Virus record (IMG/VR): IMGVR_UViG_2751185961_000010
Reading direction: 5' to 3' (one strand)
Length of the DNA: 8,956 nucleotides
Source: a virus
Taxonomy: Duplodnaviria; Heunggongvirae; Uroviricota; Caudoviricetes
Shown here: in pieces, positions 1,150-1,791 of the stretch
Layout of the letters: the number at the start of each line of letters is the position of its first letter
How positions within the stretch are numbered: position 1 is the stretch's first letter
Notes under the pieces: generated by a model
What the model was told of the DNA's origin: nothing
Databases searched by the model: none
The model's input: only the letters and a program-made list of their open reading frames with translations
Position numbers and translations under genes: made by a program

Positions 1150-1678
1150 AAACGACTGGACAAGTATACAGATGTATGCTAACGTACACGGAAAGCTACA
1201 GCTAACATCCTTACAGAGGGTTTTTCACGCAGTTATCCGTCATGTATGGGCGCTCTTTGTAACAACGAAGATTGAGTTTTCTACGCAGCTGAAAAGCTGG
1301 ATGCTCTTTAACAGCCTTTAGTGCTTTCCTGATGCAGGAAAGAATGGTGATACATGCACTATTACAAAGCATGTAATGATTCATCCATGAGGCGGTGGAG
1401 CGCTGGCAAAGTGCTGTTGATCTTTAACATTGATGCGGCGGGATGGTTCGTCCCGCAGTGACCGATAGATTTGCTATCGGGAAACATACAACGATTCAAA
1501 TATGAATCTACGGCGCTGACAAAGCGCAATTGCTCTCTTGTCCGTCCACCATGTACTGAAAAAGCGCTCTTTAAAACTACTGGACGTCACGCCTAATCGT
1601 GTGACCCCGCCGAAAGCGGGAATAGCTCTACCTTGCTGGAGCATACCAACCAAACAATCTGAATTTATCTTATGCAAT

Positions 1679-1710
1679 ACCACAACATGTTTTCATGTTG
1701 TGGTTTTTGT
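1679..1710 (+). terminator. Rho-independent terminator candidate: perfect 11-bp stem (1679-1689 / 1694-1704), 4-nt loop, then TTTTGT
   Basis: ACCACAACATG-TTTT-CATGTTGTGGT followed directly by TTTTGTCG; lies in the non-coding gap about 85 bp upstream of the alpA start. As a perfect DNA palindrome it could alternatively be a dimeric-regulator operator. Confidence 0.5.
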
Positions 1711-1791
1711 CGTGTTCGTAATTTGACGCAAATAAAACTCTTGCTAAGCCACAGGAGGGGATTTCCGCGTCAACATTAAGGAGATTGATAA

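Follow-up and report, generated by a model that had tools for sequence, protein, structure and literature searches.

A plus-strand array of lambdoid nut elements between int and alpA of a phage satellite, a candidate antitermination leader

The window analysed here, an 8,956-bp stretch of viral DNA (IMG/VR record IMGVR_UViG_2751185961_000010), carries a satellite that groups with the Gram-negative phage-inducible chromosomal islands (PICIs): int, alpA and a primase-helicase gene run in one direction, and no structural or lysis genes are present. The stop codon of int ends at 1149 and the ATG of alpA lies at 1792, leaving a gap of 642 bp. Judged by its sequence, this gap is a plus-strand array of lambdoid nut elements, copied from sites of helper phages or mimicking them. 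It appears rather probable that the antiterminator N of a helper loads at this array, upon which RNA polymerase passes the terminator ahead of alpA and alpA is induced; in this scheme we infer N as the inducer, the place of the promoter and the effectiveness of each module.

A megablast comparison of the gap with 5,426 complete E. coli genomes distinguished two classes of matches. The first comprised about 45 full-length or near-full-length matches, located in similar int-alpA islands. The second comprised about 400 matches to positions 1483-1530 alone, with 96-100% identity, in lambdoid or Shiga toxin (Stx) prophages, where the copies occupied the non-coding stretch immediately upstream of gene N. 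About 90 Stx phages also matched this block, which shared 96-98% identity with the nutL feature annotated in 933W and in Stx phages related to it (AF125520, GQ499361) and displayed the same orientation relative to N as in the phage. The nut sites of H-19B are known to consist of a boxA, a spacer with a hairpin, and a boxB (PMC3526286).

Motif searches gave matches with a marked bias to the gap. The boxA motif of lambdoid nut sites (CGCUCUUUA / UGCUCUUUAACA) occurred on the transcribed strand. All three GCTCTTTAA-like matches of the window (at most one mismatch) fell in the gap on the plus strand, and exact GCTCTTTAA matches numbered two against about 0.07 expected per whole window. Likewise, the three P22-type boxB matches of the window (at most three mismatches) were all found in the gap on the plus strand, a number reached by one of 200 shuffles, and the boxB at 1513-1527 belongs to a class of known N specificity, that of P22/933W. 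A preliminary description of this stretch had reported hairpins at 1438-1456, 1462-1480 and 1586-1620 and a terminator at 1679-1710, all of which were recovered at these positions; what it overlooked is that the hairpins are, by their motifs, of boxB type and interleaved with boxA motifs. Three to five boxA-like motifs alternate with hairpins, all on the plus strand:

1250-1264, plus strand: boxA-like motif 0, GCGCTCTTTGTAACA, a degenerate copy recognised in the alignments
1286-1299, plus strand: boxB-like hairpin CAGCU-GAAA-AGCUG with a GNRA loop, directly 5' of boxA1 (100% of alignment cells paired)
1302-1314, plus strand: boxA1, TGCTCTTTAACAG, an exact GCTCTTTAA match
1324-1342, plus strand: hairpin CUUUCCU-GAUGC-AGGAAAG, 9 nt past boxA1, which is canonical nut spacing (100% paired)
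1399-1415, plus strand: degenerate P22/933W-type boxB, AGCGCTGGCAAAGTGCT, with 2 mismatches, recognised in the alignments
1418-1430, plus strand: boxA2-like motif, TGATCTTTAACAT (TTGCTCTTTAACA in relatives)
1438-1456, plus strand: hairpin GCGGGA-UGGUUCG-UCCCGC, 7 nt past boxA2
1462-1480, plus strand: hairpin CCGAUAG-AUUUG-CUAUCGG, its pairing counted in the alignment
1483-1530, plus strand: copy of the 3' two-thirds of the 933W/H-19B nutL, from genome and phage BLAST and annotated nutL
1493-1508, plus strand: spacer dyad GATTCAAATATGAATC, the hairpin of the long H-19B/933W-type spacer
1513-1527, plus strand: boxB GCGCTGACAAAGCGC, the same as the nutL boxB of P22 and of 933W
1530-1542, plus strand: boxA3-like motif, TTGCTCTCTTGTC, degenerate; in relatives 10 nt upstream of a lambda-type boxB
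1553-1567, plus strand: decayed lambda nutR boxB, GTACTGAAAAA--GCGC, from the alignment with relatives
1565-1577, plus strand: boxA4, CGCTCTTTAAAAC, an exact GCTCTTTAA match
1586-1605, plus strand: phi21-type boxB variant G-UCACGC-[CUAAUC]-GUGUGA-C, 8 nt past boxA4
1606-1620, plus strand: hairpin CCCGC-CGAAA-GCGGG, resembling the P22 nutR boxB CCGCCGACAACGCGG

The order boxA-then-hairpin recurred along the gap, with 9 nt after boxA1, 7 nt after boxA2, 10 nt between boxA3 and the lambda boxB of relatives, and 8 nt between boxA4 and the phi21-like boxB (6-10 nt overall); it was plainest in the EcCIMP1/AR452 variant described below. Taken together, the window and its relatives displayed boxBs of the lambda, P22/933W and phi21 classes plus three unmatched hairpins. 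Several elements that are degenerate here were better preserved elsewhere. At the position of 1399-1415, relatives displayed the exact GCGCTGACAAAGCGC, and at that of 1553-1567 the exact lambda nutR boxB GCCCTGAAAAAGGGC was found in 2014C, CP53, SCU115, A20 and three IMG/VR contigs. At the position of motif 0, CP53-type relatives carried CGCTCTTTTAACA with, just before it, GCCCTGGAGAAGGGC, which is one base off the lambda nutL boxB and absent from the window. As for the phi21 class, boxA1 had exactly the sequence of the boxA in the phi21-type nutR of Kapi1, a helper phage, and the boxBs used for comparison were UCACCU[CUAACC]GGGUGA (nutR of phi21 and Kapi1) and UCUCAAC[CUAACC]GUUGAGA (Kapi1 nutL). 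The phi21 site was checked by its occurrence: about 70 IMG/VR contigs carry TGCTCTTTAACAG-10nt-TCACCT[CTAACC]GGGTGA. Among relatives, the hairpin at 1586-1605 showed only G-C/G-U changes in its stem, so that pairing was kept, and its loop read CUAAUC, CUAAUA or CUAACA.

Lambdoid nut sites (lambda, P22, phi21, 933W/H-19B) resemble the array in boxA consensus, P22/933W boxB, phi21-like boxB and H-19B-type spacer, as well as in standing ahead of a terminator on the transcribed strand. The array differs in that the satellite encodes no N, that the gene controlled would be alpA and that the element is known here from sequence; moreover, at least four tandem sites of mixed specificity were found instead of the one per operon encountered in phages, and several boxBs stand just 5' of a boxA. 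Leaders of rrn operons and CRISPR arrays are likewise long and untranslated, sometimes with hairpin-then-boxA order, and boxA1 displays TGCTCTTTAACA, which is of the rrn type; the 8-nt core is given in PMC3177189. These traits, together with the length of the untranslated leader (about 600 nt) and the several hairpins that precede boxA as in rrn leaders, could suit a host-only antitermination in which NusB/NusE (with SuhB) constantly shield the leader from Rho, the boxBs being vestigial and the helper acting elsewhere. Protection of long non-coding RNAs by boxA alone has been documented (PMC7665894). In contrast to the array, rrn and CRISPR leaders of this kind are constitutive, need no phage protein, contain one boxA and leave strong intrinsic terminators undefeated. 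Rrn-type complexes would accordingly fail at a terminator such as 1679-1710, and host-only antitermination leaves unexplained the exact phage-type boxBs of three classes, the 48-nt copy of a phage nutL and the host-matched boxBs of an unrelated Proteus satellite (see below). Since the homologous reporter described next is also helper-dependent, we regard this alternative as improbable.

The AR452 variant of the array is that of island EcCIMP1 of E. coli MP1, with the same integration site and the same AlpA (WP_000035054.1), an AlpA shared by CP53/AR452-type relatives. EcCIMP1 is the one relative for which mobilisation was shown experimentally (PMC11773190). Its int-alpA gap is a 427-bp deletion variant of the window gap, in which the array reads TGTTCTTTAACAG-6nt-TCGCTGACAAAGCGC-AAT-TGTTCTTTAAAAC-8nt-GTCACGC[CTAATA]GCGTGAT, followed by the conserved hairpin; that is, boxA, 6 nt and a P22-type boxB, then boxA, 8 nt and a phi21-like boxB. 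Pick et al. (2025) fused the segment -449..+50 of EcCIMP1 alpA to lux (PMC11773190), and this insert spans the entire EcCIMP1 gap and hence the whole array. Expression rose strongly only upon induction of the helper Kapi1; treating a non-lysogen with mitomycin C gave no response, and in the absence of AlpA the increase was partial (PMC11773190). In the Kapi1 genome (MT813197), the product of gene 020 displays a phi21-type arginine-rich N terminus, and both nutL and nutR consist of a boxA followed by hairpins with the phi21-type CUAACC loop. A helper with a phi21-type N inducing a reporter whose sole insert is an array with a phi21-like nut site fits the N model, without amounting to proof of it.

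The following course of events is proposed. The int-alpA gap would be the untranslated leader of the alpA operon, its boxA motifs would bind host NusB/NusE, and its boxB hairpins would be of several specificities, namely P22/933W, phi21, lambda (intact in relatives, decayed here) and unmatched types. Without a helper, transcripts coming in from int or from a weak promoter right behind it would halt at 1679-1710 or through Rho, and alpA would stay off. A lambdoid helper entering its lytic programme would make N, which would bind to a boxB of its own type as the leader RNA emerges and, together with Nus factors, render RNA polymerase resistant to termination; N is known to suppress Rho-dependent and intrinsic terminators alike (PMC3526286). 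Polymerase would then read into alpA, AlpA would boost its own expression, and the satellite cycle would begin. We give an even chance to the broader idea that such a multi-specificity array turns any lambdoid early antiterminator (N of the lambda, P22/933W and phi21 classes) into an inducer of alpA within one PICI family.

The terminator-resistant polymerase may also override termination-based immunity of the C4/isrK type that the satellite itself carries downstream. Rfam matches in this region were isrK at 4391-4467 (52 bits) and C4 antisense RNA at 4492-4579 (74 bits), with a sub-threshold c4 target a1b1 at 4378-4430. These matches lie inside or beside an Ash-family open reading frame (ORF) at 4286-4804 and form a P1/P4-type RNA immunity module, the combination of C4/isrK and Ash being what the window satellite shares with P4/P1-type immunity.

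The same leader RNA might additionally act as an N sponge and so aid superinfection immunity. As a rival reading, in which the RNA is not, or not solely, a switch for alpA, such a decoy seems unlikely to us; the terminated leader would here titrate the N of an incoming phage along with Nus factors and thereby contribute to superinfection immunity or interfere with the helper. It would account for many hairpins of N-binding type on one RNA ending at a terminator, and EcCIMP1 plays a part in immunity to superinfection by Kapi1, with no known defence system in the island (PMC11773190). Yet EcCIMP1 neither reduced Kapi1 titres nor affected infection of non-lysogens (PMC11773190), and the strong promoter that decoy-level RNA would call for was not found by the promoter scan. 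The site directly upstream of alpA, and a Proteus terminator some 30 nt ahead of the alpA start codon, favour control in cis. Decoy and switch are compatible and could coexist.

The leader recurred in islands that differ in both integrase and tRNA site. Relatives at tRNA-Gly next to ETT2 (window type and S1KEN) displayed 98.9% identity, while identity was about 82-88% for the CP53/H10407 type, found at tRNA-Thr beside proA. Variants differed chiefly by deletions with end points in repeated boxB/boxA units, the 2014C type having one of 99 bp and the AR452/EcCIMP1 type having two. The array behaves in this respect like a recombining cassette set, with deletions between boxB-AAT-boxA repeats (L003, L183 and L204; alignment columns 275-388 and 196-443). 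In the alignment of 11 sequences the hairpins were kept, with 93% of hairpin cells paired and three pairs changed on both sides. Compensatory changes were observed in the terminator and two hairpins: a C-G to U-A change in the terminator, an A-U to U-G change in the hairpin at 1286-1299 (AR452/EcCIMP1 type), and a C-G to U-A change at 1606-1620, where the CP53 type reads CCUGC-CGAAAU-GCAGG; this last one was read by eye, the automatic pairing count being mis-registered by a loop indel. Every one-sided stem change converted G-C or A-U to G-U (among them one A-U to G-U in the terminator), so that pairing was kept only in plus-strand RNA.

This conservation bears on the idea that the array is functionless debris of lambdoid immunity regions left by illegitimate or homologous exchange. 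The 48-nt block near-identical to the nutL of Stx phages does suggest recent capture, array variants do arise through deletion between repeats, and the window copy does show a mutated lambda-type boxB and does belong to a damaged element. However, debris would hardly place all elements on one strand and in nut grammar, persist across different integrases and tRNA sites, or accumulate substitutions that preserve hairpin pairing. An independent Proteus array of different sequence and the helper-dependent expression conferred by the homologous EcCIMP1 region also speak against it, and we consider such an origin without function quite improbable.

The Proteus array came from a survey of alpA loci across Enterobacterales, covering 21 species by one locus each, in which it was the only array found; it belongs to an unrelated satellite of Proteus myxofaciens (L109, 2268-2970). 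The IMG/VR contig L220 has the same sequence as this satellite. A TTGACT/TATACT promoter-like site is followed there by three boxA-like motifs, two reading TGTTCTTTAACA and one TGCTCTTTGACA, in alternation with hairpins GCGCTGAAAAAGTGC and TCGCTGATAAAGCGT. Some 400 nt further downstream comes a terminator of 11 bp; its stem stops about 30 nt short of the alpA ATG, leaving no room for a separate alpA promoter. The module boxA-5nt-GCGCTGAAAAAGYGC was found in 23 stretches of IMG/VR viral contigs, which correspond to temperate phages of Proteus/Providencia; eight of these stretches contained a pair of copies, one per strand and separated by 1-3 kb, the signature of a nutL/nutR pair. Two unrelated satellites thus each hold nut sites of the kind found in phages of their respective hosts.

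Several observations weigh against N-dependent antitermination at the array, or against its generality. At the level of the motifs, the loop at 1586-1605 is one change away from the phi21 CUAACC in the window and one or two across relatives, and several P22- and lambda-type boxBs lie flush against the 5' side of the boxA that follows, an order resembling that of rrn rather than that of phages. For three of the hairpins, an exact-pattern scan of IMG/VR returned no phage nut site: GCGGGATGGTTCGTCCCGC occurred only in copies of the window's own satellite, TTTCCTGATGCAGGAAA only in satellite copies and chance coding matches, and the exact phi21-like hairpin of the window in nine chance coding matches. 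BLAST of 1562-1625 and 1283-1350 against phages gave chance matches only. Diversity among relatives was low, with two or three lineages, which makes the covariation statistics weak and supportive rather than decisive. The promoter scan found no site in the window or S1KEN, and in the CP53 type returned TGGACA-17-TAAAGT at a count not above that in shuffles. The terminator of the CP53/EcCIMP1 types displayed a weaker U tract than that of the window, so part of the block may there come from the action of Rho on the long untranslated RNA. As to the reporter, another Kapi1 product could be the inducer.

At the level of distribution, a nut array was missing in 20 of the 21 surveyed alpA loci, and no nut motif was found in the 365-bp int-alpA gap of EcCICFT073. 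This model PICI is induced by lambda and phi80 (PMC6092414) and, being devoid of nut motifs, must sense its helper by another route. It otherwise resembles EcCIMP1 and the window satellite in its succession of int, non-coding gap, alpA and primase; in EcCICFT073 and EcCIMP1 alike, it is the helper that turns alpA on, SOS by itself being insufficient. A general role of nut arrays in PICIs was rejected on these grounds, and by its distribution the nut-array mechanism is family-specific. The EcCICFT073 gap (L011, 11161-11525) itself contains five (G/A)AACAAC repeats and a near LexA box, TACTGT-N8-ACAC.

The array is flanked by the two genes and by several further conserved features:

99-1149, plus strand: int, tyrosine integrase (Pfam Phage_int_M and Phage_integrase)
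1154-1173, plus strand: conserved block GACTGGACAAGTATACAGAT after the int stop, near-invariant in 11 relatives even though their int 3' ends diverge
1645-1659, plus strand: C-rich, G-poor unstructured tract, ACCAACCAAACAATC (composition of 1621-1678: C 14, G 7)
1679-1710, plus strand: intrinsic terminator with an 11-bp stem, a 4-nt UUUU loop and a UUUUUGU tail, found by terminator scan
1723-1773, plus strand: invariant TTGACGC (1723-1729) with inverted copy GCGTCAA (1767-1773), from the alignment
1792-1995, plus strand: alpA, master activator of Gram-negative PICIs (Pfam Phage_AlpA, E 2e-20; role from PMC6092414, PMC11773190)

The block at 1154-1173 is a candidate leader promoter or operator, containing TGGACA (1157-1162, candidate -35) and a LexA-box-like CTGG-N8-ACAG. 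With the LexA consensus CTGT-N8-ACAG and a heterology matrix rebuilt from 21 sites, which makes the index approximate, the latter scored about 11.6, the best value in the window and within the top 5e-5 of 222,000 background positions. The idea of a LexA box is nevertheless marginal; as for reporters that do not respond to mitomycin C without a helper, the downstream terminator would also explain this. Since the terminator scan found none between the int stop and the array, read-through from int may feed the array. At the other end, the tract at 1645-1659 is a possible Rho loading (rut-like) site before the terminator. The pair TTGACGC/GCGTCAA possibly serves AlpA autoregulation, AlpA autoactivation having been reported (PMC6092414, PMC11773190), or is a weak promoter (TTGACG, with a poor -10). 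A Shine-Dalgarno sequence for alpA, AAGGAG, is found at 1778-1783.

The gap had been described as a structured regulatory non-coding stretch ending in a strong terminator, and folding bore this out on both strands. The plus strand of the whole gap reached -205 kcal/mol (z -3.8 against dinucleotide shuffles) and the minus strand -188 kcal/mol (z -3.5), the plus strand thus folding better. Single elements that departed strongly from randomness were the terminator (z -6.0), 1586-1620 (z -4.6) and 1493-1527 (z -4.3), while folding of the composite stretches 1286-1342 (z -1.4) and 1399-1456 (z -1.7) was not significant. The terminator, with five G-C pairs and -16.9 kcal/mol, stands 82 nt upstream of the alpA ATG. 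An independent transcript had also been suggested: a transcript ending near 1710 is plausible, and it makes more sense as what an antitermination leader yields when uninduced than as an independent small RNA. That the gap specifies a small or medium regulatory RNA with its own promoter, ending at 1679-1710 and base-pairing in trans, is very unlikely. A strong terminator 530 nt past int and a structured region would suit it; what is conserved are nut motifs of the kind bound by proteins and not a seed region, the window displayed no promoter-like site, and the covariance-model check for known RNAs came back empty, no Rfam family matching 1150-1791 at E up to 1. The homologous nutL region of Stx phages had no Rfam match at E up to 1 either.

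The earlier judgement that the gap holds no credible ORF was upheld. ORFs within it did not exceed 69 aa, the minus-strand frame being split into pieces of 55 and 69 aa; they matched no Pfam family and gave two weak PHROG matches (E about 0.005). The indels that distinguish the gaps of relatives have lengths not divisible by three. In CP53 and H10407, among others, PGAP annotates a coding sequence for a minus-strand protein of 129 aa (WP_225389441.1) overlapping the array (L001, 4111-4500; L203, 2270-2659). A genuine small protein is hardly conceivable, given that its frame is broken in the window, that other relatives lack the annotation, that the indels do not respect the frame, that the product has no Pfam or PHROG match and that its sequence is built of palindromic nut modules. 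A coding gap was rejected on the broken frame, the indels and the absent family matches; WP_225389441.1 is probably a false gene call, and the "hypothetical protein" entry that many E. coli genomes carry across the array is probably best deleted. The weak PHROG matches of the window (1362-1529, minus strand; phrog_4908 and phrog_3960) may themselves be ORFs miscalled over phage nutL.

Two further suggestions of the preliminary description were abandoned. A role of the gap in att recombination was dropped, as the attL of relatives lies upstream of int, beside a tRNA gene. The label P4-like was replaced by PICI-like: P4 membership (psu, delta, sid and epsilon along with int, alpA and alpha) was rejected, no psu, sid or delta being annotated in complete relatives.

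Components of the array are textbook; a tandem multi-specificity array in a satellite, set before its master activator, appears undescribed in the searchable literature. A full-text search, in a library that lacks most subscription journals, returned no description of nut sites in satellites, and neither the study of EcCICFT073 (PMC6092414) nor that of EcCIMP1 (PMC11773190) names the phage inducer of alpA or mentions nut sites. Helper sensing by Gram-negative PICIs is an acknowledged gap, Fillol-Salom (2018) stating that the inducer "is now under study" (PMC6092414); if the antitermination model is true, the inducer would be identified for this family. It would also be the first case of a satellite hijacking the RNA-directed antitermination of its helper, a new route of eavesdropping as compared with the protein anti-repressor used by Staphylococcus aureus pathogenicity islands (SaPIs) and the DNA-binding late activator used by P4. 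Satellite expression is coupled to helper transcription in helper-embedded PICIs (PMC10111431) and at the P4 late promoters with P2 Ogr as well, in the former by insertion in a helper late operon and in the latter by a DNA-binding activator, whereas RNA sites for an early antiterminator are proposed here. The model would further explain how one island could answer several unrelated-looking lambdoid phages, and boxB types could predict helper range from sequence.

The window copy of the satellite looks partly decayed, with int truncated by an insertion sequence (IS) and the lambda-type boxB mutated. Homology to intact int begins at 100, about 55 N-terminal codons being lost to an IS end at 1-98, presumably IS1-like from its terminal repeat. 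This end occurred at 72,125 places in 4,970 E. coli genomes, and the IS/int junction of the window was absent from all complete E. coli genomes of the collection; the copy has probably lost its mobility and probably stems from another strain or from Shigella. S1-KEN-03-A (L202), the closest intact relative, is located at tRNA-Gly beside the ETT2 type III secretion cluster; it carries a Q-family antiterminator gene near its right end (12981-13373), as well as a Dcm methyltransferase and a single-stranded DNA-binding protein (SSB). Elsewhere in the window, a match to the archaeal snoRNA sR17 at 5500-5550 (27 bits for a gathering score of 36) was taken as chance, and a group II intron D1-D4 match at 8560-8713 (67 bits, above the gathering score) was found near the right end, past the primase region.

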